Shown here in pieces: positions 30,093 to 55,101 of a stretch of DNA of 64,000 nucleotides. The notes under the pieces are model-generated. The model worked only from the letters and a program-made list of their open reading frames with translations, did no database searches and was not told the DNA's origin. The translations under genes were made by a program, and so were the position numbers. Numbering within the stretch: the first letter of the stretch is position 1; the number at the start of each line of letters is the position of its first letter. The DNA is taken from assembly GCF_056746865.1 (NCBI RefSeq), contig NZ_CM163382.1. One strand, 5' to 3'.

Positions 30093-31631
30093 TTATTCTG
30101 AAGCGAGAAATTTGTCGAGATAAGGTACAACATAAGGAACAGAAGTCTGGAATATACCATTTTCAATCCAGTAAAGGGTGTTTGCCCCTGGGCGTAAATT
30201 AAAGGCGGTGAGATATGCATCAGCTGCTTCCCGGTTCATCCCCTTCATTTCATAAACCTTGCCAAGCAATACATAATTTAGCCAGGACATTTCAAGATCA
30301 ATGCCAGTATTTATCGCCTGATAAGACTCATCTGTTTTACCTTTTACCAGAGCACTGACCGCTTTTATTTGATATATAATGGACAGGTTATTCAATTCCG
30401 GTAGTGTAACAATGTTATCTATTTCTGTGTTCAGTGCTGCTAATTGTTTTTCATCTAAAGGATGTTGAGAATGGCGCACGATATCAACTAATGCTTTTTC
30501 TGCTCTCGCGTAGGTAAATTCTGGGGATGATTGAACAATCTCACCCAATAATTCACTGGCACGGTTCAATGATTTATCATCGCCATGCAGTAAATAATCA
30601 TGTGCCTGATAAAAATTAGTTAATAACGCACCACGATGAGGCAAAATTTGCTGGAGCATCTCCTGCATTCGTTGTGGCCACGGTTGGTTTAACGCTTTTG
30701 ATAAACTCTCCAGTAAATCATTTTGAATCGCCAGCTGATTACCGTTAGTGATGACATAACGTTTATCCAGCATGGTTGAACCATCTGCATTGTCTACCAA
30801 TTTTACCGACATAAAGCATTGTTGAGCACGGTATTGGCGCTGATTAACAAACGCAATAGATAATGTTTTACCGGAACTGCTCGGTTCATCAATGTTGTAG
30901 TTGATTTTGTCATGCACCATAAAGGTGGAGAAGGTGTTAAGTGATGTCGCCACCAAATCACCCACGCCTATCGCGTAAGAGAGCTGATACGGGGAACTCC
31001 AGCTGTTACAACTTTTATTTACCATATTAATGTCAATATCGCGTGGATTGAGCAAAATACGCGATTTGCTCATCGGAAGACGTGTATCAAGACTTGAAAA
31101 CGCTACCAGTGCTACACAGATACCTAACGACAACAGGAAAAAAAACCATACCCAAAAGGTAGTGAATCGTTTGCTTTTAACAGGGGATTGTTCAGGTGGT
31201 GTTGCGGTGTTTTGAATGTTAAGACTGTGGGAGGGAGAATCTGTGTCAGGAACCGCCTCTGGTATAGGGGGAGGCGAAGATAGCATTATTTCCTCTCCCT
31301 CTTCTTCGCTGTACCAGATAACCGGCACCATTAATTTATAGCCGCGCTTTGGTACAGTAGCGATATAGACAGGACTATCTTCATCATTATCTTTTAATGA
31401 CTTACGTAGTTCTGAGATACTCTGCGTCACAACGTGATTGGTGACAATACTTCTCTTCCAGACATTATCGATAAGTTCATCCCTGCTAAGTACTTCGCCA
31501 CTGTGTTGAGCAAAGAAAACCAGAAGATCGATTAATCTCGGCTCAAGGGTAAGTTGACGCCCATTGCGGCTAATTTGGTTTATGGACGGAGTAACAAGCC
31601 ATTCGCCAACGCGAACTACAGGTTGTTGCAT
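30093..31631 (-). CDS. cadC: Membrane-integrated transcriptional activator CadC (ToxR-like)
   Basis: 512-aa ORF: N-terminal winged-helix DNA-binding domain, single TM, periplasmic sensor. Confidence 0.95.
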   Translation of the reverse strand: MQQPVVRVGEWLVTPSINQISRNGRQLTLEPRLIDLLVFFAQHSGEVLSRDELIDNVWKRSIVTNHVVTQSISELRKSLKDNDEDSPVYIATVPKRGYKLMVPVIWYSEEEGEEIMLSSPPPIPEAVPDTDSPSHSLNIQNTATPPEQSPVKSKRFTTFWVWFFFLLSLGICVALVAFSSLDTRLPMSKSRILLNPRDIDINMVNKSCNSWSSPYQLSYAIGVGDLVATSLNTFSTFMVHDKINYNIDEPSSSGKTLSIAFVNQRQYRAQQCFMSVKLVDNADGSTMLDKRYVITNGNQLAIQNDLLESLSKALNQPWPQRMQEMLQQILPHRGALLTNFYQAHDYLLHGDDKSLNRASELLGEIVQSSPEFTYARAEKALVDIVRHSQHPLDEKQLAALNTEIDNIVTLPELNNLSIIYQIKAVSALVKGKTDESYQAINTGIDLEMSWLNYVLLGKVYEMKGMNREAADAYLTAFNLRPGANTLYWIENGIFQTSVPYVVPYLDKFLASE

Positions 31632-32211
31632 AATAGAAACTCATTCGAAAAGGGAATGATGCAATGATAATTGCCACAACCTATTTTTACCATCTATAGA
31701 TGGGTTTATTTACATATTATTGGTGAATGCAAGACGTTATTTTTACCAGCCATAAACTTCTTGATCACATAGTATTACGAAAGGATTTTACTGAGAACCA
31801 GAAGTAATATTCCTTACCATCAAAATTCATCATCTTTGCCAAAGAAAAATGTTCAGAAAATAATCCATGGAAAATTGCCCGGAGCGCTTACTATTTTTAT
31901 GGATTGTTAGTCTTTGCATGAGCAAGCGGACTGATACATTTCTCTTTGTTCTCATTCAGAAAATCTCATCAGTCGGCGTTCTGCCCGAGGTTGTGCTTTA
32001 TGGATGCGTTACGCTCCTGATGACGTCATTTGACGTTCAACAGCATCACGGGGCCGCGCGACATTTCACGTCAGTCAGTGCTATCGCTCAGGAACAAATT
32101 TTCCCGAATTGGGATATGCCCGCAAATTGCTGGTGATGTGGGGAGAATCTGGTTGAGTTCGGTAGAAATGATTTTTAGGCAGAACGCTTAAATTGTGGCG
32201 TCCTGAAACGA

Positions 32212-32238
32212 AAAACGGACCTCCGTGGAGGTCCGTTT
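32212..32238 (-). terminator. Rho-independent terminator downstream of tRNA-Phe 3' end (native chromosomal flank)
   Basis: Perfect hairpin aaacggacctcc/ggaggtccgttt followed on the minus strand by a T-rich run, placed directly 3' of the tRNA-Phe terminal nucleotides. Confidence 0.5.
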
Positions 32239-32247
32239 ATATGAATT

Positions 32248-32266
32248 TGGTGCCCGGACTCGGAAT
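32248..32266 (-). repeat. 19-nt 3'-terminal fragment of tRNA-Phe (att-site direct repeat, distal island junction)
   Basis: tggtgcccggactcggaat is the reverse complement of the 3' end of E. coli tRNA-Phe (…ATTCCGAGTCCGGGCACCA); sequence diverges from the tRNA body at 32267, so no intact tRNA is present here. Confidence 0.8.
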
Positions 32267-32513
32267 GAAACTGGTTATATAACCAATTGTTTTGTATCGA
32301 CTGTTTTATCCTTGTTCTTTTTGGGGCCACCAATGAGGCCCCCATGTGCAATTCGAATTCTTTTGACGCTATAATCCCTCTTTTTTGTGCTTTGTTGTAA
32401 TCATTTTGTCTGGTTCGATATGCTGAATCGCGGAATCGAAGTAACAACAAAATACAGAGATTTATAAAATACCTGGCTACCTGTGTTAGGGAGCGTTAAC
32501 GCACAGATTTTGT

Positions 32514-32840
32514 TTATGGCTGCCAGAAATGATCTGATGGTTTGTCGTCTGGCTCTGCAAGTACCCTGTTGATATCCCGGGAACCATGAACGATACGTTC
32601 GATACGAACTTCAGTATCCAGTACCCTGAACAGCAGAAGGTAACGACCATACGAACAACCTCTGATCCCAGCCCCTAACTCGGGTCTTTCTCTGTAGAGT
32701 ACTGGCGATTCGGCTATCAACAGACATTGTTGGTAAAGCTCTTCGGTAAAACTGATTGCACGGACAGGATTATCCTGAGCGATCCAGTCACCTATAGCTT
32801 CAAGATCGTGTTCTGCTAATGGTGAAACAGTCAGTTTCAT
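32514..32840 (-). CDS. parE: Type II toxin, ParE/RelE family
   Basis: 108-aa ORF with ParE-like conserved C-terminal region (…RIERIVHGSRD); 4-bp overlap with upstream antitoxin gene. Confidence 0.85.
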   Translation of the reverse strand: MKLTVSPLAEHDLEAIGDWIAQDNPVRAISFTEELYQQCLLIAESPVLYRERPELGAGIRGCSYGRYLLLFRVLDTEVRIERIVHGSRDINRVLAEPDDKPSDHFWQP

Positions 32841-33100
32841 ATTGGCTGTTCACCTTCTGCCATCTTTTTGTATTTGTGCGTCAGTCGCCCGAATACCTCT
32901 TCAGCACTTTTACTTTCACCGCTGTTGATGCCTGCGGTCACGGCGCTCTGGAGTGATTCAAGCTTTATCTGCTGTTCCCGTTCTTCCAGAGCACGAAGTC
33001 CGGCACGAATGACTTCACTTGTATTGTTATACCGACCACTTTCTATTTGTTCGCGGATAAACGTTTCAAAGTAAGGACTGAGGGATACACTGGTAGGCAT
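32837..33100 (-). CDS. parD: Type II antitoxin, ParD family (ribbon-helix-helix)
   Basis: 87-aa ORF MPTSVSLSPYFETFIREQIESGRYNNTSEVIRAGLRALEEREQQ..., typical ParD/COG3609 signature. Confidence 0.85.
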   Translation of the reverse strand: MPTSVSLSPYFETFIREQIESGRYNNTSEVIRAGLRALEEREQQIKLESLQSAVTAGINSGESKSAEEVFGRLTHKYKKMAEGEQPI

Positions 33101-33171
33101 GGTGATTTTCTCGCCGATTGATTACTATCAATTAATAATAGTTAATATTCGCGAATTGTAAAATACCTCTT

Positions 33172-34038
33172 TTATGCCTTGCGGCTTTTGTTCACTGTGC
33201 TTGCCAGGGCTTCCGAGTAGTGTCTGGCAATAATATCATTAAGCCTGTCAACCAGTTCTGGTTTCCTGAACGTGATGTGCGCGGAGCCCTTCTTAAAGTA
33301 TCTGATGCTGAACATCTCATCTTCATAGTCCTCTTTACCCTGAACAGACTGGATGTGGTCATCCAGATGAATGGTGATGTTTTCCCGGTTGTCGGGGATC
33401 GGTTTGCCGCTGAACAGATACAGCATTCTTTCCAGGTCGGCAAGTCGATCTGCCTGTTGCCCGGTGATAAGATGAAACCCCCACCGGTCCCACCTCACCA
33501 GGTTGTTGACGATAATTTTACTGCCAAATTTACAGGGTGAATTGTTTTCGTAATTCCAGCTCAGTCCCCTGAAAACATTGATCACCCCACGCTCAAACAC
33601 TTCATCTTTGTTCTGGTGCAGTTGTTCAAATGTGCTCAGAATGTTCGCTTCACTGATTTCCGGAAAATTATCGTATTCCAGTGACCGGTACCATGTATCA
33701 CGGGCCTGCGCATCCATTAATGACAGCATCCCGGAACGTTGCATCAGGTCACGCCAGATTTCGCGATCGAGATTGCGGGTGATGGCTTTCATTGCTGTTT
33801 CCGGTTTATCCATCAGCCAGCAGCCACAGCGAAAATCCTGTTTCATGGCCCAGTCCCGGGCGGTTTTACCTCCAATGCTTTCCGTCAGAACTGAGATTTC
33901 AGTCAGTTGCCGGATAAGTGTGTCGATTTGCAGCAGTGTACTCTTTCGTACAGCCAGAATGTGGCGGATACTGGTTGAGCAGATAACGTCCGTATGCCCG
34001 TTGACCACTTCCGGACGGGAGGCTGTGATATCAGACAT
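33172..34038 (-). CDS. Island-associated hypothetical protein (DUF4942-like)
   Basis: 288-aa ORF with good coding character; family assignment from recalled gene context downstream of cbtA-type modules, not verified. Confidence 0.6.
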   Translation of the reverse strand: MSDITASRPEVVNGHTDVICSTSIRHILAVRKSTLLQIDTLIRQLTEISVLTESIGGKTARDWAMKQDFRCGCWLMDKPETAMKAITRNLDREIWRDLMQRSGMLSLMDAQARDTWYRSLEYDNFPEISEANILSTFEQLHQNKDEVFERGVINVFRGLSWNYENNSPCKFGSKIIVNNLVRWDRWGFHLITGQQADRLADLERMLYLFSGKPIPDNRENITIHLDDHIQSVQGKEDYEDEMFSIRYFKKGSAHITFRKPELVDRLNDIIARHYSEALASTVNKSRKA

Positions 34039-34122
34039 AATCGATATTCCTTTTTGCAGATAAATGAAAACGCCAGCCCTGTTCAGGCTGGCGTCAGTGG
34101 AATGAAGTCTGGTGAGTAATAT

Positions 34123-34320
34123 TTACCGGTTCTGGTGCAGAAGCTGCAGATGACGAAGAGTACGGACATCCTCCCGGGCCCGTTCGATACAGGGCAACAG
34201 TGCTGCCGAATCCGTTTTATCCTCATCGTTGTCAAAGATAATTCCCGATTCGCAGTCGATATTGTCCTGCAGCCACACAATCAGAATATCCAGTGCTGTT
34301 TCCGTGGTTAATGATTTCAT
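34123..34320 (-). CDS. DUF957 family small protein
   Basis: 65-aa ORF MKSLTTETALDILIVWLQDNIDCESGIIFDNDEDKTD... matching recalled CP4-prophage small-protein family. Confidence 0.7.
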   Translation of the reverse strand: MKSLTTETALDILIVWLQDNIDCESGIIFDNDEDKTDSAALLPCIERAREDVRTLRHLQLLHQNR

Positions 34321-34331
34321 GTTGTTCCTGG

Positions 34332-34820
34332 TTACCAGTCGAAAGTGGGCAGGTCAGGCAGGCATTCAGCGCTGGCATCCAGATGAATGAGACTGACGCC
34401 ATAACGCCGGATAAGAGTGACAACCAGACGGCGGAACGTTTTTGACAGTCCCAGGCGTTTAAGTCGCAGAACCGGGTATGACCACGCATCGGTACGTAAC
34501 AGATATCCGCTACCTGTAAAATGAATCCATTCTGATTCGCCGGTGTCATTCGTCTGATGTGACAGCGAGTACAACCAGGCATTGTCCGTTTCCGTGATAT
34601 GTGCGGTACTGCAGCGTATGCCGGTAAGGGCCGCAGATGGTGGCGTGCGCTCTGCTGATGCCCGGTCAGATTCATCAACAACACGAAGGGAGTAACCGTT
34701 ATCGCAGACCACGTTAATCAGTTCAGCGAGAGTAACACCATCGACGTCAACGACAATGCGCCCCATGTTCAGTGCCTGCACGTTAATGCTGTCGGCTTCC
34801 AGCGTCAGGGCCAGTTTCAT
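34332..34820 (-). CDS. DUF5983 (YeeW-like) family protein
   Basis: 162-aa ORF immediately downstream of cbtA, overlapping its stop by 4 bp. Confidence 0.65.
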   Translation of the reverse strand: MKLALTLEADSINVQALNMGRIVVDVDGVTLAELINVVCDNGYSLRVVDESDRASAERTPPSAALTGIRCSTAHITETDNAWLYSLSHQTNDTGESEWIHFTGSGYLLRTDAWSYPVLRLKRLGLSKTFRRLVVTLIRRYGVSLIHLDASAECLPDLPTFDW

Positions 34821-35194
34821 TGTTTCGCCCCCGGATGTTTACCCAAGGTAATGTTATTTACCGTTCTGTAATTGTCGCGGGCCATCAGGCCGGTTGCCCG
34901 GCGGGCCCGGAGGATATCAATACTGTTTATTAACTGAGAACGGGTACAGGCGCTGAATCCCGGCTGGTCGGTACGTACCAGTGCGTATTTTTCAACGAGA
35001 AAGTTCACCGCATCGCACAGTGAAATGCCTGCCTCAATATGCTGCTCAATCACACGTTCATCAGCGAACGGTGTGTCATTCAGTGTGAGGCCGTAATGCT
35101 GGTCCAACAGTCGGGTGAGCAGTGTCTGCCAGATGGTGACGGGAGACGGGCAGCGCGATGCCTCCCGTACGTGTGTGTCAGGTAATGTTTTCAT
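34817..35194 (-). CDS. cbtA: CbtA-family toxin (cytoskeleton-binding toxin, YeeV/YkfI/YpjF family)
   Basis: Translation from MKTLP… is near-identical over most of its length to recalled YeeV; start set at ATG 35194 with GAGG RBS rather than the longer upstream ORF start. Confidence 0.85.
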   Translation of the reverse strand: MKTLPDTHVREASRCPSPVTIWQTLLTRLLDQHYGLTLNDTPFADERVIEQHIEAGISLCDAVNFLVEKYALVRTDQPGFSACTRSQLINSIDILRARRATGLMARDNYRTVNNITLGKHPGAKQ

Positions 35195-35240
35195 CTTAAG
35201 TTCTCTGTAACTGGTAGTGCTAAAGGTGAGATATTCGGGG

Positions 35241-35615
35241 TTATGAGGTGGTTGCGGGTGCCAGTGTCGGATAAACAGCCATATAAACGTAACCACAGCT
35301 GCCGAGGGTGTCGGCTTCGCAGGTCAGCCCTCTGGCATACAGCGTGACGGTATGCTGATGGCGGGGATTCAGTTCACCGCTGGTGAGCATGAGTTCCAGT
35401 TGTTTCATCAGCAGCGGAAAGGCCTGGTCCAGATGATACGCATCCGCGTCGCTAAACTGCCCCCTGATACCGGCGCGGTCGGCAAGGTAATGCAACTGAT
35501 TGCCCTCCTGCACCAGACGTGCCCCGAAACAGGGCGTCACGGTGCAGGGGAGCCCCCACCAGGGGCGGTCGTTGTTGTTGTCGGGATGCGTTGTCCCGGG
35601 GTGTGTGTCTGACAC
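35241..35615 (-). CDS. cbeA: CbeA-family antitoxin (YeeU/YafW/YfjZ family)
   Basis: 124-aa ORF MSDTHPGTTHPDNNNDRPWWGLPCTVTPCFGARLVQEG… matching recalled YeeU. Confidence 0.85.
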   Translation of the reverse strand: MSDTHPGTTHPDNNNDRPWWGLPCTVTPCFGARLVQEGNQLHYLADRAGIRGQFSDADAYHLDQAFPLLMKQLELMLTSGELNPRHQHTVTLYARGLTCEADTLGSCGYVYMAVYPTLAPATTS

Positions 35616-35694
35616 GATAAAATCCTCACAGAAAATCGGTTAAGAATGCTCCGATGGTGGCGATAATTCGGCTCATCAGAATGCCCTTTCTGAT

Positions 35695-35916
35695 TCAGTT
35701 CAGGGTAACGCTCATCAGACGGACATACGGACCAAAACTGTCCTTACGGCGTTCAGCAAACACGGCCAGCACACCGGGAATATCCTGCACTTCACGGCCG
35801 GTATACGTATCCGTGCTACCGTGCCAGCGGTATTTACCGGTACAGAACGGAAAAAGACGGGATGCAGGATGCTGTTGGTGAATACGCATGGCTTCACCAC
35901 GGGTGATGATTTTCAT
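35695..35916 (-). CDS. DUF987 (YeeT-like) family protein
   Basis: 73-aa ORF in conserved position between radC-like and cbeA. Confidence 0.75.
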   Translation of the reverse strand: MKIITRGEAMRIHQQHPASRLFPFCTGKYRWHGSTDTYTGREVQDIPGVLAVFAERRKDSFGPYVRLMSVTLN

Positions 35917-35978
35917 AATGGGATACCTCTGAAGACAGAAGATAAAAGTGAAAACAGGTGTGATGTGGTTGTGACGGG

Positions 35979-36455
35979 TTAAAGCAGACCGTGTTCGGCA
36001 AAGGAGAATACCTGGTTGCCACCGACTATCAGATGGTCCGGCACCCGGATATCCACCAGGGCCAGCGCCTGTACCAGACGTTCAGTGATAAGCCGGTCTG
36101 CCTTACTGGGGGTGACTTCACCGGACGGGTGATTGTGCGCCAGCACCACGGCAGCGGCATTGTGGTACAGGGCACGTTTAATCACCTCCCGGGGATGGAC
36201 TTCTGTGCGGTTGATGGTGCCTGTGAAGAGGGTTTCACCCGCAATCAGCTGATTCTGGTTGTTCAGATACAGCACCCGGAACTCTTCCCGCTCCAGTCCT
36301 GCCATGTTCAGAATCAGCCATTCCCGTGCCGCATGCGTGGAGGTGAAGGCCACGCCGGGCTCATGAAGATGACGGTCCAGGGTTTTCAGGGCCCGCTGAA
36401 TGAGGCTGCGCTCGCCGGGCGTCATCGCTCCGGGCAGAAAGGAAAGCTGTTGCAT
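35979..36455 (-). CDS. RadC-like JAB-domain protein (YeeS/YfjY/YkfG family)
   Basis: Contains JAMM motif region HNHPSGEVTPSKAD; start trimmed to MQQLSFLPG…. Confidence 0.85.
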   Translation of the reverse strand: MQQLSFLPGAMTPGERSLIQRALKTLDRHLHEPGVAFTSTHAAREWLILNMAGLEREEFRVLYLNNQNQLIAGETLFTGTINRTEVHPREVIKRALYHNAAAVVLAHNHPSGEVTPSKADRLITERLVQALALVDIRVPDHLIVGGNQVFSFAEHGLL

Positions 36456-36470
36456 TATGCTTCTCTCCAT

Positions 36471-36950
36471 TCAGTCGATGATGCGCATAATGGCGCTGCA
36501 TTCCGGATGCTGCAGGGCGTAATCCCGCAACCGATAATAATGGACCGTCATGGCATAATTCTCCGTACGACAGGCGTGATGACTGTACGTCATCAGACAG
36601 GCGGCAATGCCGGCGGCTTCCGGGCTCATTTCAGCGCGGTTACCGTTCATGACGTTAAACAGCACCCATGTTTCGTCATCATCGTCATCCGGTTCGGGTG
36701 CCATAAATGCGCCACCGTTGTTCAGGGTGTACAGATTCCAGATACCACCGCAGTAGTCTTCACACAGACGGTCCATCCAGCCGAAGACACGGGGCTCCAG
36801 GGTCACCCACTGTGGAATGAGGCCAAAATGCTGCGGCCAAAAGCTGATGCGCTGTTCATCAGGGACGAGGCTGGCAACCAACTGAGGCGGATTATTCTCT
36901 GGTGTTGTAGCTGAATAAATTGTGGGGGTATTCTGAGAAACGCTTTTCAT
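36471..36950 (-). CDS. Antirestriction protein (KlcA/ArdB-like, YfjX/YafX family)
   Basis: 159-aa ORF with acidic stretch DDDDDE typical of this family; conserved position. Confidence 0.8.
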   Translation of the reverse strand: MKSVSQNTPTIYSATTPENNPPQLVASLVPDEQRISFWPQHFGLIPQWVTLEPRVFGWMDRLCEDYCGGIWNLYTLNNGGAFMAPEPDDDDDETWVLFNVMNGNRAEMSPEAAGIAACLMTYSHHACRTENYAMTVHYYRLRDYALQHPECSAIMRIID

Positions 36951-37031
36951 GAGATAACTCCTTAAATAACAAATAAAAGTGTGTTTTTCAGGAACGAAAG
37001 CTGAATGATTCCCTCACTCAGGGAAACGGCA

Positions 37032-37850
37032 TCAGCGCAGGCTCTCCAGCATCGTTTCTGCCATCACCCACAATGCGCGGTTGAGTTTAATATCGGTGTC
37101 GATGCTGTGAATGGCCCGGGTATGGATACGTTTTCCTTTTGCACTGCGACCGGAAATCCCGCCTTTCAGCATATTCTCCTGGATGGTCTGATATGCGCTC
37201 CACAGGTCCTTACCGTAATCCTCCCGGCGTCGCGGCGTCAGAATGTCGGCGGTGGTGACGGGCTGATGTTCGTCACCATAACGGTAAGTCAGTGCCGCCT
37301 GTGCCAGCGCCTGGCGTGCCGGTGGCGGCAGGACCAGCGACTGCATGGCATCACGCTTCTCCTCTATCCGGTCAAACACGCCCACCACTTCGTAAGCCCC
37401 TTCAATGACTCTGTCCACCACATTTCCCCGGTGCGGAACACGCACTTCCCCCAGAGACTGGCCACAGACGCACCCGTTCTGGCAGACGAACCTGAAGTAA
37501 CCCGGCAGCATCTGGTAGCTGGAGGTACCGTCATGAGAGTTGAGCAGAATAATTTCAGGGACATGTTCTCCGTTTATCTCTCCGGCCCGCCGCAGACGCA
37601 GCATGTGTTTGGTATATTCCCGGCGGCTCTGGTCGCGCACACGGGTCTGGCAGGCGAAGAACGGCTGAAAGCCTTCCCGCTGCAGATTTTCCAGGACGGT
37701 AATGGTGGGAATGTACGCATACCGTTCACTGCGGGAGGTGTGCCGGTCTTCTCCAAAAATACTCGGGACGTGGTACATCAGTTCTTCGCGTGTCAGTGGG
37801 CGCTCCCGACGGATCTGATTTACATGACCAAAACGACTGGCTAATTGCAT
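37032..37850 (-). CDS. DUF932 (YfjQ/YafZ-like) family protein
   Basis: 272-aa ORF in CP4-like module. Confidence 0.75.
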   Translation of the reverse strand: MQLASRFGHVNQIRRERPLTREELMYHVPSIFGEDRHTSRSERYAYIPTITVLENLQREGFQPFFACQTRVRDQSRREYTKHMLRLRRAGEINGEHVPEIILLNSHDGTSSYQMLPGYFRFVCQNGCVCGQSLGEVRVPHRGNVVDRVIEGAYEVVGVFDRIEEKRDAMQSLVLPPPARQALAQAALTYRYGDEHQPVTTADILTPRRREDYGKDLWSAYQTIQENMLKGGISGRSAKGKRIHTRAIHSIDTDIKLNRALWVMAETMLESLR

Positions 37851-37939
37851 ACTTTGCTCCTTATGAATGAATTAGCGGTATAAACGAAAAAGCCGCGTCT
37901 CCCGGAGAAGACGCGGCCTGATGGATGAAATGAAGACGT

Positions 37940-38173
37940 TTATTGCCTGAGAATTCCCTCACTGGCGAGATACGAATTTAGCTGTTTTCCGGCATCAGGT
38001 TCAAAATTCCAGCACCGCCAGCGTAGCTGCCCTTCGGCATTGCGGATAACCAGCCGGAAATGCGTTCCCTGGTCATCTTCAATAAGCACATTGCGGTAAG
38101 CTGTTGTGACGGCAACCGCCTGTTCGCGTGAGAAAGGGCCTTCGGGCAATAAAACAGGGTGGCAGTCCGACAT
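37940..38173 (-). CDS. DUF905 (YkfF/YpjJ-like) small protein
   Basis: 77-aa ORF; family assignment by recall and context. Confidence 0.6.
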
Positions 38174-38178
38174 ACCGA

Positions 38179-38856
38179 CTATTTTCCGATAAATTCAACG
38201 CTGGCGCTGGTGGCATTACCGTCAGCACCAACCGTGACGGTCACTTTGTCGTACGCACGGTCTTCAGGATTGAATACTTCAAACTCAACCTTATTGCCTT
38301 TTACTTCGTAAGAGCCAAAATCAGCGGTTTCTGTTGTTTCCTCGTCATATTCCCGGGCGTATGCCTGCCGGGCAGCCTGCAGGACGGAATCTTTATTAAT
38401 AGTGGTCGTCTGTTTCGGGGAAAAACCGGCAAGTGATGTGACAAATTTCGGACAGACCTTCAGCATATCACCGCGGGTGAATTCCATTCGTACACCAAAT
38501 GCCTGTAAAACGGACACATCACGCTCTGCTATGGAGTGAACGGCTTTTTTGACCATTTCCGGCGCCTGTCCGATTTCCACCTCAACAGCCCTGAATCCCG
38601 TCTGCTGATTACACATTTGTGATGTGGGGATCAGGTTACCGTTAATACTGATACGGCTGCCCAGGAGCGTCTGTACACCATTCGGGCATCCCTGCATCAG
38701 GCCAGTAATACCAATCGTGCCATTTTTCAGCATTACCAGCGCCTGACCATCTTCCGTCATGGTCTGACACCAGCCGTTTTTGACAGCCCAGTTGCCGGCG
38801 GAGGCGGAGAATGATGCCACAGTGAACAGCAGGGGAAAAAGAGCTCTGGTATTCAT
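38179..38856 (-). CDS. Predicted exported protein of unknown function (signal peptide)
   Basis: ORF 38179..38961 trimmed to [23 protein letters not shown]… (Sec signal peptide, AxA cleavage site, GAGG RBS); no family recognised. Confidence 0.6.
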
Positions 38857-39003
38857 GACTGACCTCTGAAATGAACGTACGGTGTTATTGATAATGATGG
38901 AAGGTATGCAGTGACTGTTCAGGGAATGACGTAGCCGTATATTTAGTTTTCTGTTCAACATATTGTCTCCATACCTGTCGGGACGGCTTTGGCAGGCCGG
39001 CGA

Positions 39004-39684
39004 TCACAGGTTAAAGGTGTTGATAAGTTTATGGATGAAAGAGAAATGTGGCAGGGCGGAGATAAAACGCTCTTCAGCGACCAGACTGTGGATGTGGCCT
39101 CTCCGTTCAAACCGTTCTGATGTCAGGCTGACTGATTTGATATCTGCCAGAGGAAAGACCTGCAGTTTTCCCTTCTGTAACGCGATCAGATACCAGCTAC
39201 CGCTGTAATAAATGAGCCGGCAGGGCTCCAGTGACGGATACCATCGCTCAGTCATCAGAGAGATGTGGATACACTGTCTTATTGCCAGGATGAGTTGCGA
39301 GAAACACTCGGGGAACGTTGCAGTGATATCCGGCGCCGGTAGCCAGATAAGGCAGGGAGAGGGCTCCTGGTTGTCGGTAAGACAGGTTATCAGTCGTCCG
39401 TTCCGGAGCGGAAGTATCCGTGCGATCCCGGTATTCTGTATAAAAGAAAGCATTTCAGGGATCGCACCTGGGCTGCTCTGTCGTCTGAGACTGTACCGGC
39501 CATTTCTGTACTCTAAGTCCAGGTGAACCAGACGCTGATGAAAATCGCGCTGTAAAGTACGTTCTGTAACGCCAAATTCATCTGACAGTGTTTTTAGTGA
39601 CAGAGATTCTCCGGCCATCAGTCGGCTGATAATGAGTGATAAGCGAACCGCCAGGCGATCATGCCGGGAACGATTATCAGACAT
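39004..39684 (-). CDS. WYL-domain transcriptional regulator (YfjR-like)
   Basis: 226-aa ORF with N-terminal HTH (…LSDEFGVTERTLQRDF…) and C-terminal WYL-type domain (…YSGSWYLIA…). Confidence 0.7.
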   Translation of the reverse strand: MSDNRSRHDRLAVRLSLIISRLMAGESLSLKTLSDEFGVTERTLQRDFHQRLVHLDLEYRNGRYSLRRQSSPGAIPEMLSFIQNTGIARILPLRNGRLITCLTDNQEPSPCLIWLPAPDITATFPECFSQLILAIRQCIHISLMTERWYPSLEPCRLIYYSGSWYLIALQKGKLQVFPLADIKSVSLTSERFERRGHIHSLVAEERFISALPHFSFIHKLINTFNL

Positions 39685-39886
39685 AGATGTGCACTCCGTA
39701 AGAAAACATCTTTTATTTCATGATGTTATTATGCATCATGATGTTGAAAGGATGTGTCGCATCCGGATAATCAGGAATAAAATGCAGCAGAAAAAATATT
39801 CTTTTAATTATCTGATTTTTAAGCATGATTTCATAAAAAGAAGAATGCTTGTTAATCCAGCGACACATCCTGTCGGCGTGAGTGTG

Positions 39887-40771
39887 TCAGAACAGACGAT
39901 CCCACAGTGTGACCAGCAAGTGGATAATGCGGTCCCGGGCCTTACGCAGAAGCTGTAACATCCAGGCCGGAAAGCTGAATTGGGCAACGGCAGCGTCAAA
40001 GCTTTTCCCGATGGCGTCACCAAAAGTTTGTTGTGCGTGTTTCCGGGCCTGTTCAGAGCGGTTTTCCCCCCGGATATGTGAATAAACTGCGCTGGTTGCC
40101 TGTGGTGGCAGTGCGTGGATCATCAGCGACACCAGTGCCGGAAGATTCCAGCCGACAGGTGCGGCAACGGAGAGTACCGGAAATGATGACGGGAACAGGG
40201 TTGCCACCCGGGCTGTTACTGTCGCCAGTGAGAGTTCCTGCTGACGGGACGGGCATTTTTCTGTGTCGTTCCATTCTTCAGCAGGAAACACGCGATCGGC
40301 ATGGCTGAGAACAAACAGAAAACGCGAGGGATCTGCACCTTCATTCAGTAAAAACTGATGCATGGCAATATCAGCAGCATACGCACGTTCATCAGCCCGC
40401 AGGATCCAGATAATCAGATCCAGTTCCGGCAGTAACTGACGGTAAAGCTCCCGGTATTCCTGATCATGCTGCGGTGTCTCACCAATGCCGGGCATATCGA
40501 CCAGCGTCATTCTGCGTTCACCGAGCTGCAGGGTAAGACGATGAGCCTGGCGGGTGCAGCCGTTCAGGGGATGCGTGGCGCAGATACGGGACTGAAAAAT
40601 GGCATTACACAGACTGCTTTTGCCGGTGCCGGATTTACCCATAATGCCAATTACGGGCTCGTAATGAATAACACCGTGGAGATGTTCAAGGATTTTCTGG
40701 CGAATTTCTTCAGGAAGAAACGTCAGATATGATTTTACTTGTGCAGAGAGGGAAGAATGGCTGAATGACAT
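39887..40771 (-). CDS. P-loop GTPase, YfjP/YeeP/YkfA family
   Basis: 294-aa ORF with G1 motif GIMGKSGTGKSS and G3 motif DMPGIGE. Confidence 0.8.
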   Translation of the reverse strand: MSFSHSSLSAQVKSYLTFLPEEIRQKILEHLHGVIHYEPVIGIMGKSGTGKSSLCNAIFQSRICATHPLNGCTRQAHRLTLQLGERRMTLVDMPGIGETPQHDQEYRELYRQLLPELDLIIWILRADERAYAADIAMHQFLLNEGADPSRFLFVLSHADRVFPAEEWNDTEKCPSRQQELSLATVTARVATLFPSSFPVLSVAAPVGWNLPALVSLMIHALPPQATSAVYSHIRGENRSEQARKHAQQTFGDAIGKSFDAAVAQFSFPAWMLQLLRKARDRIIHLLVTLWDRLF

Positions 40772-40955
40772 ACCGGTATCCTGTTGATTTCGCTGAACCG
40801 GATCACACTAATCCGGTTTATCATTCAGGTAATATGGACGTGAAAAATGATGGAATGTCTGAATTACGGACATGATTGTTAAAGTGTAATGGAGTATGAA
40901 GTGAGTTTTTCCGAACGGGAACTAATGACATACTGCGGTTTCAGGAGATGAGAGG

Positions 40956-42086
40956 ATGACCGGACGTAAAAACAAATGTGTCAGAAAAAATTGTAACAAT
41001 CAGGTTTTCTCAGTAAAAATGGCAGTGGAGAAAAGACTGTGCAGAAAACATTATGAGAGGTTTTGTGAGCTCAAAAAAAGAAGAGAGCAAAATCCTGTTC
41101 ACAGATTAAATGAAGCATTGCCAAGAAAGATAAAAGGACCAAAAAGTAAGAAAAAATTAGTAAAAGAAAGAGAAATCATTAACAGCAGAAAAAAACATAA
41201 ACAGGAGCAGGGACCATCGCTGACTGAACTTAATAAAAAAGTTCGTGAGATACTGAAAACTCCTGCATGGAGAACGCTGGAAACGAGAATTCGAAGAAAC
41301 GGAATCACATTTAAGTCAAAAGCAGAGTTAGATGCGCTTTCTGAACTTTATGCAATTTATTCATGGGTTTCATATTGCAAACGGGGCGATAATTATTCTG
41401 TGTGGTTTTTGAATTGTCCGGATGTAAATATAAACCTTCATGTGTGCGAATGCCGGTCTTCTGAAAGCGATTGTTATCTGCCATCTCGTTTTATTATTCT
41501 TCCAGCTCCATTAAGGCAAAAAGTAAAAAGAAAATACTCGGCTAATTCGTCTGGGGTACCAGGACATAATGATTCAAAAAGTCTTTATAAGACAGTTTTG
41601 TCTGTTTGTGGTGGGAAAAGAGAAACCGAATTGTTCTTTTATTCACTGCCAGTAAAGACTAATCATCATCCTTACTGGATTAAAAGTGGTGTGGTTAAAA
41701 GATTTCCTCCTGTTTTTGGTTTGTTGTTTTATGAACAGGAAAGATTAACAGGAGGTGTTTTTCGTTATGTGTTGATAAGGTTTTATAATACTTTTAAGGA
41801 GAATTTGTTTTTTGTTGAGATTGTCTCGTGCTGTTTTCTTGTTGAGCTTTTTCATGATATTGATTCGTTTTTTATAAATCAACGATTAAGTAAGCTGGAA
41901 AGTTTTATAGATAAGTGGAGGGAGGGTAAAGAAATCTGGATAAAAGCATATCTACAACTGATACATAATACATTGGGAATAACTGAAACAGAAAAACTCG
42001 TCAATCTATATAATTCATTTTTTACTGATAAAGTGGTTATCTGGGATGAATCAGTAAAAAAAGTTAAGTGGATTTATGAGAAATAG
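40956..42086 (+). CDS. Orphan hypothetical protein in AT-rich cargo locus (Lys/Arg- and Cys-rich N-terminus, aromatic-rich C-terminal half)
   Basis: 376-aa ORF with GGAG-like RBS (ggagatgagagg) before ATG; markedly AT-rich codon usage compared with flanking genes; no family recognised. Confidence 0.6.
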   Translation: MTGRKNKCVRKNCNNQVFSVKMAVEKRLCRKHYERFCELKKRREQNPVHRLNEALPRKIKGPKSKKKLVKEREIINSRKKHKQEQGPSLTELNKKVREILKTPAWRTLETRIRRNGITFKSKAELDALSELYAIYSWVSYCKRGDNYSVWFLNCPDVNINLHVCECRSSESDCYLPSRFIILPAPLRQKVKRKYSANSSGVPGHNDSKSLYKTVLSVCGGKRETELFFYSLPVKTNHHPYWIKSGVVKRFPPVFGLLFYEQERLTGGVFRYVLIRFYNTFKENLFFVEIVSCCFLVELFHDIDSFFINQRLSKLESFIDKWREGKEIWIKAYLQLIHNTLGITETEKLVNLYNSFFTDKVVIWDESVKKVKWIYEK

Positions 42087-42629
42087 TACCATTTAACTGA
42101 AAGCCACCATAACGTCTTTTTGACTACATCCATGATAATGAGTCTCATTTTGATTTCGTTTTTTTTGTTTCGGGAAATTTTCCGAACATCAGTGATAATG
42201 AGGGTTTTGTTGTTTTTGTTTCTGCAATGTTTGAGGGCTGTTCCTGGAGATGATTCGTTGCTTGTGAGCAAGAGGTGGTCCGCTTTACTGGACAAGTTTT
42301 GCATTTGTTGAGTGGTGAAATGGAAGTAAAAAGAGCCCCTTTCTGGCAATGACTGAAAAAGTCAGTAGCGTGTGACAGTAAAAACTAACATAAAGTGATT
42401 ATCGTATGATTATGACAATGACTTATAACTTTTATGAAAAGAACAACAGAAACTATGAAACCATAGCAGATTCCTGAGACCATGTTTTCTGAGGTAGAGA
42501 AAATAATTCAAGAGTAAACCAGTTTGTTTTTTGGTCAGTAAAGAACCATGCCTGATGTGAAAACGGGTAATCAACATTCAGTCTGCATGAATGTCTGAGA
42601 ATGTTGCTAATGTCGGTATGATACTATAT

Positions 42630-42725
42630 ACACGTATTTTACTAAGTATTTTTACTAAGCATTTCAGTAAGTGTTTTACCAGACATACACGTGTTTTCAT
42701 AAACAGCCCTATAAGTGTTTTCATT
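42630..42725. repeat. Cluster of degenerate ~12-bp direct repeats (iteron-like) in AT-rich intergenic region
   Basis: Motif (A/T)(C/A)TAAG(T/C)(A/G)TTTT / ACACGT(A/G)TTTT recurs at about 42634, 42646, 42659, 42671, 42691 and 42715, first four with ~12-bp spacing. Confidence 0.5.
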
Positions 42726-43601
42726 AAGCATTGCTGTACACATTGCTTTGTCTGAAACACATCCAGTTTAGTAAATCTTTACGTTAGCTAAAATCAGTTT
42801 AAAGCTGCTGTAAAACCTTTCTGTTTAAGCAATCAATCTGCTATTCGATTTTACTGATGTTGCGTTTAACCTTTTCTGAGTTTTTGTGTTTTTAGTCGTT
42901 AACCTGAGACAAGTGTCTTTACGTAAAAACGCAAATCCGACTGAGATAACCTGGTGTGATTTACGGTGTGCTTGCGACGATTTTGTTAAATGGTTCTATG
43001 GATGATTTTGTGACGATGAGATTGATGAGATGATTAACTGGCCCTGGTGTTTTTTCTCAGTGCAAGGTGATTATCTTCATCATAAGGCTCTTTTCAGAAA
43101 AAGCGTGATGATTGGTTCTGGTGTTTTGATTCAGATGAGATTTACGTTATCGATGGTTAATCGTTTTTATGGTGTGTTGAAAAGTAACGTTTTCACGATA
43201 AGAAAATCGATTCTGATATTGGTGAACTTTGTTCTTGTGGCAGGGTTATCTGTAAACAGGTTTTAAGTGCGCTATTCGGCTCTGTGATTGAGTTGTGTGG
43301 TTAAGCTGTAGGTTTTGGTGTTGTTGTTGATTTACAGCGCCAGAAAGCGTTCTGATTGCGTTTTTGATGTTTTGTTTGCACGTTCTGTTGATCCGTTTCC
43401 CTTCAGGCTTTGTAGTTTTTAAAAACCATTTATGCCGTTGTTGTGTGTTTTATCCTGCGTGTAGGTTTATCTTTTCTTCGTGGGGGATTCATTCTGTTTT
43501 AATCAGGAGCCATTGGCGTTGCTCAATGGCGGGATGCCGTAAAGTTTTACCGCAGTGATTAATGATGTGAAGTCAATCCAAATCAACGGAGATCTCTCAT
43601 C

Positions 43602-44333
43602 ATGAATCAACCAATACACAATGCTTACTGGTTATCCCGTTTTGAAAGTATTCTCAACAGTGCCCTGGCGCAACACCGTGCCGTCTCGTTAATCCGGGTG
43701 GATTTACGTTTCCCTGAGTATATGCCTGCCACCATCATGGATACCGATTTAGATTCAGCGGTGATTTCTCGTTTTTTTGCATCCCTGAAAGCAAAAATTC
43801 AGGCTTACCAGCGACATAAACGACGTGCCAACAAGCGTGTGCGTGCAACCACTCTGCGTTATTTCTGGTGTCGGGAGTTTGGCAAGGAAAAAGGCAGGAA
43901 ACATTATCACGTGATATTACTGCTCAACAAAGATACCTGGTGCTCGCCAGGGGATTTCACCGTTCCTTCTTCGCTGGCGACACTGATCAAGCTGGCATGG
44001 TGTAGTGCTCTGCATCTTGAGCCCTGGCAGGGTAATGGACTGGTTCATTTTTCCAGGCGGACGCCTTTCCGTAAACCGACATCATCTGATGCTCGCCCTT
44101 CTTCCGATGATACGCCTTTGTCGGGTGGATGTTCTGATACCAGGAAGGCTTCAGACAAAAAGCCGGGTGAAGCCGCTGTTCTCTGGATCAAGCGTGGTGA
44201 TGTGGAAGCGCTGCAGAAAGCCCGGAACAGAGCCAGTTATCTCGTGAAATATGAGACGAAGCAGCATGACGGTTCCGGGCAACGTAATTATGGTTGCAGT
44301 CGTGGGCCGGGGCGTCTGCTGGATGGCAGGTGA
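43602..44333 (+). CDS. Inovirus Gp2-like / YagK-YfjJ family protein with HUH-type and YxxKYxxK motifs
   Basis: 243-aa ORF; contains HYHVILLL (HUH-like) and SYLVKYETK (rolling-circle Rep motif-3-like). Confidence 0.7.
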   Translation: MNQPIHNAYWLSRFESILNSALAQHRAVSLIRVDLRFPEYMPATIMDTDLDSAVISRFFASLKAKIQAYQRHKRRANKRVRATTLRYFWCREFGKEKGRKHYHVILLLNKDTWCSPGDFTVPSSLATLIKLAWCSALHLEPWQGNGLVHFSRRTPFRKPTSSDARPSSDDTPLSGGCSDTRKASDKKPGEAAVLWIKRGDVEALQKARNRASYLVKYETKQHDGSGQRNYGCSRGPGRLLDGR

Positions 44334-44689
44334 GCCCTGTAAAACGACATCCGGTGTCTGAGCTTATGCTACAGGACGTTGGCTGACGCCCTTAGCTCGT
44401 TTTCTGAAAAAGTCGTCCTGAAGTCATGCAACGGTATTTTTCTCTGCTTTCGCTCCTGGAAACACTCCGTCGGTAAAACCTTACTGTCCTGCTTAATGAT
44501 GTGAACCGAAGTCAACGGAGAGCATTCATTCTGAACCTGCATCCGGTGTTCTGTCCCTTGTCGGTTACCTGATCTTCCCGTTCTGCCGCGGTTTTTCACT
44601 TATTCCATCAACCCCATACGCAAGCCATAACACGTCAGCGCATCCACGGGCAGGACGCGTTGTGGGCTGCGTATAACGGAACATATCTT

Positions 44690-45262
44690 ATGAATGCTAT
44701 CCCTTATTTCGACTATAGCATGGCGCCCTTCTGGCCATCTTATCAGAACAAAATCATCGGCGTTCTCAACCGTGTGTTGCGCGAGCAGTCCTGCTCCCGA
44801 ATACGGCGGATCCTGCTTCGTCTGCCGGGGGAACATGGCAACATCTTCAGCGACAGAAAAACCTGGTTCGGTATGGCCTTTATCGAAACCGTCAGTGCGC
44901 TGATGAATGCAACACCCGGACGCGACCTCTGCTGGCTCCTGACACGTCATCCTGAAAAACCGGAATACCACGTGGTGCTGTGCGTCAGACAGGAATATTT
45001 CGACGGCCCTGAGCTGGACCGGTTGATTCTGGATGCCTGGAGCAACGTACTGGGCTTCGCGTCACCGGGTGAAGCAGCACCGTACCAGAAACAGATAACC
45101 CGGGATGTGGTGCTGGACAGTTGTTCACCGGACTGCGAAGAGAGACTCAAAGAGCTGATATGGGCGTTCAGTGATTTCGCCCGCGATCGTCGTGGTGTGC
45201 GCGATCCGGAAGCCCGTTACCTCGCCGGTAATCCCTGGTATCCCGTAGCAGGCCAGCTCTGA
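44690..45262 (+). CDS. Divergent Gp2-like paralog (hypothetical)
   Basis: ORF 44660..45262 (TTG-initiated in track); ATG at 44690 gives MNAIPYFD…; shares N-terminal R-h-x-L-R-x-P-x-E motif with 43602..44333 but lacks clear HUH and Tyr motifs. Confidence 0.5.
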   Translation: MNAIPYFDYSMAPFWPSYQNKIIGVLNRVLREQSCSRIRRILLRLPGEHGNIFSDRKTWFGMAFIETVSALMNATPGRDLCWLLTRHPEKPEYHVVLCVRQEYFDGPELDRLILDAWSNVLGFASPGEAAPYQKQITRDVVLDSCSPDCEERLKELIWAFSDFARDRRGVRDPEARYLAGNPWYPVAGQL

Positions 45263-45330
45263 AAGCTCAGCTCAGCAGATTCACCCGCATTTGCCCAACA
45301 TTCATAAATCTCACAGAGGACATTCTGACC

Positions 45331-45567
45331 ATGTTGACCTCAATGACAGGTCACGACAGCGTATTGCTGCGTGCCGACGATCCCCTGATCGACATGAACT
45401 ACATCACCAGCTTCACTGGTATGACCGACAAATGGTTTTACAAGCTGATCAGTGAAGGCCATTTCCCTAAACCCATCAAACTGGGGCGCAGCAGCCGCTG
45501 GTACAAAAGTGAAGTGGAGCAGTGGATGCAGCAACGAATCGAGGCATCACGAGGGGCAGCAGCATGA
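45331..45567 (+). CDS. alpA: AlpA-family phage regulatory protein (HTH)
   Basis: 78-aa ORF with AlpA-like core (…ITSFTGMTDKWFYKLISEGHFPKPIKLGRSSRWYKSEVEQWMQQR…). Confidence 0.8.
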   Translation: MLTSMTGHDSVLLRADDPLIDMNYITSFTGMTDKWFYKLISEGHFPKPIKLGRSSRWYKSEVEQWMQQRIEASRGAAA

Positions 45568-45767
45568 AACGTGTTGTAATGCCGGTACGCTGGCAATGTG
45601 CAAAATACCAGCGTTGGTATTGTGGAAATCAGCCCTGTCCCTGGTGCTGGCGACCTGCTGCCCCCGTCTGTCATTCCTCGTTCTTCGCTGTAACAGGCAT
45701 CGTACCGGTCTCGGCGTGCTTTCCTGCGTACCGACACCGGTTCAGCAACATTCAAGGGGATCAAATC

Positions 45768-46304
45768 GTGCAAATAACCGAAACCGTACTTTCAGAGCCG
45801 GTGGAAATCCGGCGTTTTATTCAGCAGGCGGTGGATCACTGGCCGCGTCTGCTGGCCGTCCACTTCACACTCCATTCGGCAGAAGGAAACATCAACGGAC
45901 AACAGATTCATGCATTCTGTACTTCCTTTTATGAACGTATTACTGAGCGTAATCACACGACCAGTCCATCATCGCCGGTGGTATTACGCTGGTTGCGGGA
46001 ACAACATGGAGGAGCAACAATGCGATGCCTGTTGCTGCTCAGCCAGACGAGTATTTGTCACCCGCGAGCCAGTGTCACAGTTGATGAACAATGTTCGCAA
46101 GTGGTGGATTTACTGCAGCAGACCTGGCGGGGGATGGATACGGGCGGACAATGTCGGGTGGAAAGGTGTTTTCAGGCTGCCCGGGGTGATACATCCGGCC
46201 AGTATATTGCGTTAAAAACAGTTGCATTGTCTCTGGGGTTACCGGTTGTGACCGGTATTACCCATCGCCCGGTACAGCGCTGTACATTGATTACAGCTCA
46301 GTGA
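45768..46304 (+). CDS. Hypothetical protein, possible third Gp2-like paralog
   Basis: In-frame part of ORF 45522..46304; GTG at 45768 preceded by AAGGGGA RBS; alternative ATG start at 45564 overlaps alpA stop (ATGA). Confidence 0.45.
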   Translation: MQITETVLSEPVEIRRFIQQAVDHWPRLLAVHFTLHSAEGNINGQQIHAFCTSFYERITERNHTTSPSSPVVLRWLREQHGGATMRCLLLLSQTSICHPRASVTVDEQCSQVVDLLQQTWRGMDTGGQCRVERCFQAARGDTSGQYIALKTVALSLGLPVVTGITHRPVQRCTLITAQ

Positions 46305-46321
46305 ACAGCGCTGTTGTGCAG

Positions 46322-46833
46322 TCAACGAGGTTTTCTGTCTTTTCGTCGGTCATTCAGCATCATTAAACGGGTCTCTGCCTCTTTCTGTTCCTGTGGTGTC
46401 ACTTCCCCGCACGGCTGACCGTTCAGGTTGTAACGGGCGCCACCTGCTATTAACGCACGGTAATAGCGCGGAGACTGCACATAAGACGCCACTGCTGCAT
46501 GTAATGTACCAGCGCCAAACGCCAGTTCTCGGATGGCGATATCCTGTATCAGGTCGTCAGGTATCCCCACTTTAAGTGGTTTTGTTTTTTTCCCGGTTGA
46601 ATGACTCAGGCCAGAGTTCCACAAGACGAATAATGCGCTTACGGTTTTTGCTCTGGCGTTTTGTCATGTCGCCACGGTGTTTTATCAGCAGGTTTCTGTT
46701 TATCGTTCAACTGTGGTATCTGGTCACCGGCCTTCATTTTGTATGCTGTGTCCGTTTTATCCTGCAGCGGCGTTGCCGGTGATTTACTGAAAATACCCTG
46801 CGGTTTACGGTTAATGGTCAGAGTTACCATCAA
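46322..46833 (-). pseudogene. Two consecutive ORFs (64 aa and 100 aa) in different frames, possibly one disrupted gene
   Basis: ORFs 46639..46833 and 46322..46624 on the same strand separated by 14 bp with a frame change; no family recognised. Confidence 0.3.
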
Positions 46834-47188
46834 TTTTGTTACCTCGCGCTGTCAATGGAAGTAGTACCTCATCCGATATCTGAAAATGTTTTCCGGTGGA
46901 TGTTACAGCGAATTTCATGTAAGACATGTTGTTGTCGGTATTGTTCAGTACTGTGCGTTGTGAGCGTATTCGTTATCAGACAGAGGGGCAGGGAACAAAT
47001 GGCGTAAACGGACATCTCAGTGCCTGAGAAACAGTACAGGTCAGGCCATCATGGCCTGCAAACAGAGCCCTGGCGACCCCGTGGCCGAAAACGAAACAAT
47101 AACCCGCGCGCAGTGCGAGGAATCCGGATGTGAAGCAATCAGCAGGTAATATTAATGGCAGGACCAGCAGGTTCTTTAAACAAACGAA

Positions 47189-47951
47189 GGTGGTGACTCC
47201 AATTAGTAGAACATATATTTTTCGATAAAGGCACCGATGACTTTTTCATGAAGTTCTACAGAGCGCGAGAAACAGATAGTTCTGCGGGCCAGACGTTTGA
47301 TTCGGGTTCTCAGAGGTAGATGTTGCGCTCAATGCGCTGAGTAAAAATCTTACCAGTCAGATGCTTCTCCTTCGGTAACTCTCTGGTGTAACTACCCCAT
47401 TCGTCAGTGGTCAACATACCGATGGTAAAAGGGCAAGCAGCGCCAGCAATTCACGACAGGTTTAATCAGTCCGTAGGCCAAAAGTGTAGGCCAGAACGCC
47501 ACCAGTTTTCGTGTTGTACGTGTACCAGAGCCAGTGCTGTCGCGCTTTACTGCCGACAAAACTCCATTGCTCATCAAGTTCGCAGATGAGTGCCATATCA
47601 GCATGAGCGACCGGGTATGACGTTATTCTTCGTGGCGAGAGTTTTTTAAAGTCCGGATGACAGTATTAATGCCGATTTTCAGCGTACGGGCAGTATCGCG
47701 AACTCCGGCACCGTTGAAAGCCATTTCAGTGATTTGCTCTTTAACTCCCGGTTTACGGGCCTCGTAACGGTAAGTGAGCTGAAGCACTCGATGACAGTCA
47801 CGGCAGCGAAATCGATCATGTCCTTTGGGTTCTTCCCGTGACGGTAAACCTGAACGGACTGGCAACAGGAGCAATGAAGGTTAACTGTGACCATGAAAGA
47901 ACCTTAAAAGTGGCTATTATACTCCTAATTCAACTAATTGGAGTCATTACC
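47189..47951 (-). mobile_element. IS1-family insertion sequence (divergent isoform), insB apparently degenerate
   Basis: Terminal inverted repeats ggtggtgactccaatt (47189-47204) and ggtaatgactccaatt (rc of 47936-47951); length 763 bp; insA intact; conserved TTAAAAAAC frameshift motif at insA end; InsB-like translation needs at least two further frame changes. Confidence 0.75.
47623..47874 (-). CDS. insA: IS1-family InsA (zinc-finger/HTH transposition regulator)
   Basis: 83-aa ORF with CxxC…CxxC zinc finger and C-terminal HTH resembling IS1 InsA (…GINTVIRTLKNS…). Confidence 0.8.
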   Translation of the reverse strand: MLLLPVRSGLPSREEPKGHDRFRCRDCHRVLQLTYRYEARKPGVKEQITEMAFNGAGVRDTARTLKIGINTVIRTLKNSRHEE

Positions 47952-50871: not shown

Positions 50872-50909
50872 CAGGTCAGGATTTAGATATCTGTCCCGGG
50901 GGGAGTCCC

Positions 50910-52248: not shown

Positions 52249-52281
52249 GGGGAGTCCCCCGGGATATAATGAGGTACAGAG

Positions 52282-52737: not shown

Positions 52738-53053
52738 TGTATCTTATATTGTGATATCGGTGCTGCTGCTGTTATTTTTTGTTGTATTTGTGACGAATGG
52801 TTAAGAATAAAACATGAGTTGGTGATTATCAGGACAGGTTGCTTGTATATGAAGATAACAAAGGCGGCATTTATTTTTGCGCTGTCAGTGTGGAGTGTTG
52901 CTGTGATATGTCTTTTATTATTTGTACTGGTTGTTCTGGGATAGCCATAGTGAAATAAAAAGCTGTCTGAATTAAATTATTTTGAACACATATTTTAATT
53001 CTGCACTAAATTCAGAATGACCCTGTAAATAATTCTGTGTAACTGCCGCCGTA

Positions 53054-55058: not shown

Positions 55059-55101
55059 CGACGGATGAAAAGTGGCTCTTACGCAACCTGGATGGAGATT
55101 T

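Follow-up and report, generated by a model that had tools for sequence, protein, structure and literature searches.

The window, by which we mean the whole 64-kb stretch of DNA analysed here, begins with a long block of K-12-like sequence. Positions 1–32269 correspond to 4,330,317–4,362,573 of E. coli K-12 MG1655 in a single megablast segment (98.6% identity, 20 gap positions), and the K-12 gene order is maintained in this block (proP, basSR, eptA, adiCYA, melRAB, fumB, dcuB, dcuRS, lysU, dtpC, cadABC, and yjdQ). Rfam matches the sRNA STnc630 at 1731–1896 (181 bits), between proP and basS and overlapping pmrR according to the K-12 alignment; this is ordinary core content. The core gene closest to the junction is cadC (30093..31631, minus strand), a 512-aa ORF that is colinear with K-12 and annotated both in K-12 and in the 99.3%-identical locus of genome PK8275 (NZ_CP080163.1). 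In a pairwise alignment with K-12, identity was observed up to position 32266, followed by random similarity. An earlier note made from the letters of the sequence had anticipated a match to K-12 up to 32266 and divergence after it, and the alignment bears this out, the K-12 sequence stopping at 32266/32267.

The block ends with a fragment of a tRNA-Phe gene (32248..32266, minus strand). On the plus strand these positions read TGGTGCCCGGACTCGGAAT, and the reverse complement of this sequence equals the 3'-terminal 19 nt of pheU as annotated in K-12, CCA included; in tRNA numbering we take the fragment to run from A58 in the T-loop through A76. The junction sequence (32207–32270) reads AACGAAAAACGGACCTCCGTGGAGGTCCGTTTATATGAATT-TGGTGCCCGGACTCGGAAT-GAAA. 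The 19-mer occurs only once in the window when up to three mismatches are allowed, with a chance expectation of 0.06 matches, and an indel-tolerant fuzzy search of the whole window yielded no second att-like site besides 32248–32266; with one deleted base, this search extended the match at 32248–32269 to 22 of 23 nt. ARAGORN identified zero tRNA genes in the whole 64-kb window, and Rfam returned no RNA family at the junction. The earlier note was therefore right to describe the last 19 nt of tRNA-Phe at this position, with no complete tRNA gene at the junction.

The sequence to the right of the fragment (32267..64000) is accessory DNA belonging to the island, which continues past the end of the window. 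It has no match in K-12, and its ORFs map to annotated island genes of the near-identical loci of PK8275 and of a second genome, PK8276 (NZ_CP080146.1), in agreement with the previous suggestion that everything from 32267 onward is accessory. The GC content of the island forms a mosaic (35–56%), and base composition gives no clean boundary. A type II toxin-antitoxin pair, parDE (32514..33100), occupies the extreme end of the island. The parE ORF (32514–32840, minus strand) is annotated as such by RefSeq in PK8275 and has a weak RelE/StbE match (E 3e-5, below the curated cut-off), and parD (32837–33100, minus strand), which also carries the RefSeq annotation of PK8275, matches TIGR02606 (E 5e-28). 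Two small symmetrical sequences lie between the tRNA fragment and parE. The first is a perfect 14-bp palindrome, TGGTTATATAACCA (32272–32285), located 5 nt inside the island from the 19-nt fragment; it was considered as a binding site and set aside, and it may be fortuitous, since the related island of genome EA7 (see below) has one base different (G to A) and the symmetry is broken. The second is a GGGGCC-N8-GGCCCC hairpin (32323–32342), which is preceded by a T-run but not followed by one on either strand and is therefore not a canonical terminator.

Next to parDE is a conserved CP4-type distal module (33172..40771, minus strand), the ORFs of which were mapped to the PK8275 annotation in the order DUF4942, DUF957, DUF5983, CbtA, YeeU/CbeA, DUF987, RadC/JAB, antirestriction, DUF932, DUF905, HTH regulator, and YeeP-like GTPase, the last of these having GTPase-family matches below the family cut-offs. 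Beyond the GTPase come an orphan of 376 aa and Gp2-like proteins, then a 78-aa AlpA/excisionase-like protein; the order continues with IS debris, a YadA-like adhesin, an MFS transporter, and, last, iucABCD. NCBIfam gave no match for the DUF4942 protein or the Gp2-like protein, neither NCBIfam nor PHROGs matched the 376-aa protein (40956–42086), and three other island ORFs tried against PHROGs yielded no match. The 376-aa protein is rich in lysine and is followed by about 1.5 kb with no convincing ORF; together they form a stretch of low GC content (40956–43601, ~35%) that is kept in PK8275, PK8276, and EA7. The 78-aa HTH protein (45331..45567, plus strand), a candidate recombination directionality factor, has a weak match to TIGR01764 (E 4e-4, below the cut-off) and is annotated as an HTH regulator in the relatives.

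The remainder of the window carries the cargo. Debris of IS1, IS4, IS256, and ISL3 elements (~46.3–56.5 kb of the window) surrounds the gene for a YadA-like trimeric autotransporter adhesin (49276..50871, plus strand; annotation of relatives), and within the adhesin a stretch of about 35 residues is repeated in tandem. An MFS transporter gene (56546..57739, minus strand; PK8276 annotation, no NCBIfam match) is divergent from iucA, the first gene of the aerobactin synthesis genes iucA, iucB, iucC, and iucD (57812..63563, plus strand), which were assigned from their ORFs, the PK8276 annotation, and IucA and IucD superfamily matches. The aerobactin operon is thus on the island: iucABCD lies in the window, and iutA, which is annotated in the relatives, is cut off at the window end. 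The iucD gene (62286–63563) is an intact 425-aa ORF in the window, but the annotation of PK8276, a genome otherwise 99.93% identical here, gives it as frameshifted.

The complete structure can be observed directly in relatives, among which the clearest case is EA7. In this genome, the order is dicD, an intact tRNA-Phe gene, a 396-aa tyrosine integrase, an island of about 37 kb, ParD/ParE, the 19-mer, an integrase fossil, and cadC. The last 10.4 kb of the EA7 island, compared with positions 32267–42679 of the window, had 99.05% identity, in an alignment covering 31438–42679. The two att copies of EA7 have exactly ATTCCGAGTCCGGGCACCA in common, forming a 19-bp direct repeat, and the bases differ on both sides. 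As the EA7 copies share exactly 19 bp, the 19 nt correspond to the att core of this type of island and not to a chance truncation, and the proposal in the earlier note that a 19-nt partial att repeat marks the far end of a pheU island is upheld. On the basis of the K-12 pheU match, the uniqueness of the 19-mer in the window, and the EA7 repeat, 32248..32266 was annotated as a displaced tRNA-Phe 3' fragment constituting the attR core of the island and its distal boundary; this fragment, at the island's far end, is oriented as pheU is in K-12.

The same fragment could also be the leftover of a pheU gene destroyed in a manner that was not site-specific, by IS-mediated deletion or rearrangement, in which case no intact pheU and integrase would lie opposite and the block would not be bounded by att sites. 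IS fragments are indeed abundant to the right of the junction, and the proximal end is beyond the window. However, the breakpoint is the same to the base in EA7, PK8275, and PK8276, in EA7 the fragment and the end of an intact pheU, beside which the integrase lies, make up the exact 19-bp direct repeat, and there is no IS end at 32267, the nearest gene being parE, 247 bp away. Furthermore, the fragment spans the T-loop to the CCA, reportedly the usual target segment of P4-type integrases (described by Williams in Nucleic Acids Res in 2002). We therefore regard destruction of pheU by an event that was not site-specific as highly improbable, and 32248–32266 as very probably the attR of a genomic island that entered the 3' end of pheU through the action of a P4-type tyrosine integrase.

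PK8275 provided a longer match to the window (99.35% identity to 11201–50886, and 99.3–99.6% at the junction) and a different view of the proximal end. In this genome, an intact pheU with a 420-aa integrase was found about 161 kb from the junction, with two tandem islands between them. Starting from pheU, there is an island with pap and antibiotic-resistance genes, an internal degenerate att, and a second integrase, past which lie raffinose-utilisation genes, a type I restriction-modification system, iha, sit, and iuc. The second integrase is 99.2% identical to that of EA7 and 42.6% identical to the first PK8275 integrase, and the PRK09692 integrase domain is matched by both the 396-aa EA7 and the 420-aa PK8275 proteins. 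The internal att (locus extract L005, 20810–21016) reads TTCGATTCCGAGTCC-GGCACCA and has a 1-nt deletion, which may lock the two tandem islands together.

This arrangement raises the question of whether the accessory block of the window is itself a tandem array, with the element bounded by the attR at 32248–32266 much shorter than the block. The two islands between pheU and the junction in PK8275 speak in favour of such an array, as do the tandem islands at pheV in PK8276. However, the visible 31.7 kb is devoid of a second att-like site or integrase, and the PK8275 island adjoining the junction extends for about 107 kb to its own integrase; we consider a tandem array with a short element at this end somewhat less likely than not. 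No genome identical to the window was identified in the collection, the best matches having 99.6% identity at the junction and 98.7–99.1% over 42–64 kb. As the window ends inside the island, the nature of the proximal end had to be taken from the relatives, by comparison with which the same structure, an intact pheU and an integrase, would be expected in the genome of the window. The earlier note had predicted such a structure to the right of position 64000, and the prediction holds in EA7 and PK8275, two complete genomes with the same junction. The distance from the junction to pheU may be much greater than about 31 kb, with more than one island between them.

The K-12-like sequence between cadC and the 19-mer was also analysed. 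Comparison by blastn and tblastn with the intact integrase next to pheU in PK8275 identified positions 31896..32084 (minus strand) as a fossil P4-type integrase, corresponding to yjdQ of K-12. About 11 N-terminal codons are joined to about 60 C-terminal codons, and roughly codons 12–358 are gone. The sequence IALTDVKCRAA aligns with the start of the PK8275 integrase, MALTDAKIRAA, and the 3' 180 nt have 71% DNA identity to the PK8275 gene, up to and beyond the stop codon. When the PK8275 integrase was searched by tblastn across the whole window, this fossil was its sole match, and no intact integrase was found in the window. The annotations of PK8275 and EA7 list the fossil as an integrase pseudogene, and that of K-12 names it yjdQ; the K-12 orthologue has the same position in a surrounding block of 98.6% identity and no notable difference. 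A literature search on yjdQ found nothing.

A 152-bp segment (32115..32266, minus strand), containing the 19-mer, a terminator, and an integrase leader, is homologous to the tRNA-proximal end of pheU and pheV islands with the 421-aa integrase type. Read from 32266 down to 32115, it is identical at 140 of 152 positions (92%) to the sequence after the intact pheU of PK8275, which is there the terminator and integrase leader of the island itself. The terminator is an intrinsic hairpin (32213..32238, minus strand; 11-bp stem with 6 G-C pairs, 4-nt loop, and T-run tail TTCGTTTCAG), placed as the pheU terminator; running from 32238 to 32213, it lies directly 3' of the tRNA end and in the tRNA orientation. 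An origin of the pheU downstream flank in an old pheU/pheV duplication was considered and rejected. In K-12, the similarity of pheV to pheU is limited to the promoter-side flank, the tRNA itself, and some 10 nt past it; since the K-12 pheV downstream flank is not homologous, the 152-bp segment did not come from such a duplication.

The flank from cadC to the 19-mer (31896–32266), K-12-like as it is, is thus the fossil of an older pheU island. The earlier note had described the terminator and the cadC-side DNA as native; these sequences are indeed K-12-like, but the homology of the 152-bp leader segment and the deleted integrase point to an older island as their source. The pheU site is accordingly layered, with at least two layers of integration, and three in some relatives, and the 19-mer would have two roles, as attR for the present island and as an orphaned attL for the fossil.

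In PK8276, the same aerobactin island (99.93% identity over 46991–64000 of the window) is found at pheV, behind the same 19-mer. Pathogenicity islands at pheU and pheV are known to share an integrase type (PMC7686366), and the presence of the aerobactin island at pheV in PK8276 agrees with this. The pheV island of PK8276 (locus extracts L007, 7756–7888, and L010) adjoins gsp/yghD, a capsule cluster, and a second CP4-type module, and its 19-mer is followed by the terminator, only 114 bp of the integrase leader, and a fragment of an Ag43-like autotransporter. The locus is a tandem array from which the integrase of the older island has been deleted.

The nearest genome differs along the window, PK8275 for 11201–50886 (99.35%) and PK8276 for 46991–64000 (99.93%), indicating recombination between islands. 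It could be that the site-specific integration was ancestral, that homologous recombination of a large chromosomal fragment, through flanking core genes or the 152-bp repeats, then brought the entire occupied locus into this lineage, and that the island is now an immobile fossil. The change of nearest genome would fit such a history, as would the 152-bp repeats of 92% identity that flank the composite of PK8275 and the extensive IS decay. However, the window has an intact AlpA/excisionase-like gene and the relatives have intact integrases, and we consider this history possible but rather unlikely; it is in any case compatible with an attR at 32248–32266, as it concerns the route of spread only. 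Many transposase genes in the cargo of the relatives are pseudogenes, the cargo being heavily degraded by IS elements, and the element may be fixed in place.

The occupancy of the site varies among strains. The K-12 query cadC–yjdQ–pheU–dicD was contiguous, with the site empty, in 3779 of 5426 complete E. coli genomes, from which about 30% of complete genomes have pheU occupied. The window's own junction was found in only 160 of the 5426. The K-12-like flank with the fossil had matches in 5420 to 5425 of these 5426 genomes, that is, in virtually all E. coli. The presence of an island at the site is thus polymorphic, on a flank conserved in at least 5420 of 5426 genomes.

Several islands of this kind have been described. 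Documented pheU islands include PAI-ED1a-pheU (Iha and aerobactin), PAI-CFT073-pheU, SHI-3 (aerobactin, from S. boydii), and variants of LEE (PMC7545054), and papGII islands at pheU have also been documented (PMC7686366). A regenerated tRNA gene and a displaced fragment mark the ends of such islands and are the basis of the Islander database (PMC4383910). By published description, the island of the window can be likened to PAI-ED1a-pheU (44 kb; Iha, aerobactin) and to ExPEC islands at pheU and pheV, such as PAI-CFT073-pheV (PMC7545054, PMC7686366). Points of agreement are the site at pheU, between yjdC/dicD and cadC, a cargo that includes aerobactin and, in the relatives, also iha, sit, and pap, a P4-type integrase that adjoins the tRNA gene in the relatives, and the mosaic, IS-rich nature of the cargo. 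The cargo varies by strain, EA7 having the same ends as the window without aerobactin. SHI-3 of Shigella boydii, from the SHI-2/SHI-3 'PAI iuc/iut' family, is also, by description, a pheU island with the aerobactin operon (PMC7545054). However, SHI-3 is about 21 kb long, whereas the island of the window exceeds 31.7 kb, has a CP4-type distal module, and adjoins an intact cadCBA. SHI-3 is said, in work by Purdy and Payne from 2001, to sit in a genome from which the cad region has been lost. The CP4 elements of K-12 (CP4-6, CP4-44, and CP4-57) presumably share with the distal module the YeeP-like GTPase, DUF932, antirestriction, RadC, YeeU/CbeA, CbtA, and DUF4942 genes, and we take them to resemble the island of the window in having a P4-type integrase and a tRNA or tmRNA gene as target. 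They differ from it in target tRNA and in cargo, and the island of the window has parDE added at its tip.

These observations can be accommodated in one scheme. The attP of the island would have included a second copy of the 19 nt that end tRNA-Phe, and the integrase would have recombined it with the 3' end of pheU, so that the junction probably arose by integrase-mediated recombination within the 19-bp core. The island-borne copy would complete an intact pheU at the integrase end, beyond position 64000, and the chromosomal 19 nt and the DNA downstream from it would have been displaced to the parDE end, adjoining cadC. This displaced DNA would already have been the remnant of an older island, consisting of the terminator, a 133-bp integrase leader, and the internally deleted integrase (yjdQ). 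The present island is a mosaic, with a CP4-type distal module tipped by parDE and, beyond it, IS-ridden cargo with the adhesin and the aerobactin operon.

The junction is real and already known: it is the ordinary far end of an aerobactin island at pheU, a familiar type of pathogenicity island in E. coli. Its value for annotation is that it places the exact left edge of the accessory block at 32266/32267, with 32267–64000 constituting a virulence- and fitness-associated island, bearing aerobactin and an adhesin, at a classic insertion hot spot. In biological terms the case is a textbook one, and the only mildly instructive point is that the flank taken as core is itself a fossil island. A bolder suggestion, which we put forward as speculative and quite unlikely to prove correct, is that the terminator and leader found after pheU throughout essentially all E. 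coli are not the ancestral flank of the tRNA gene but derive from an ancient island, of which they would be the domesticated tip, and that islands with the 421-aa integrase type each supply a replacement of 92% identity when they arrive. If so, the 3'-end processing and termination of pheU would be island-encoded and swapped at every integration, and the 152-bp repeats would provide a route, independent of the integrase, for the loss or exchange of islands by homologous recombination.
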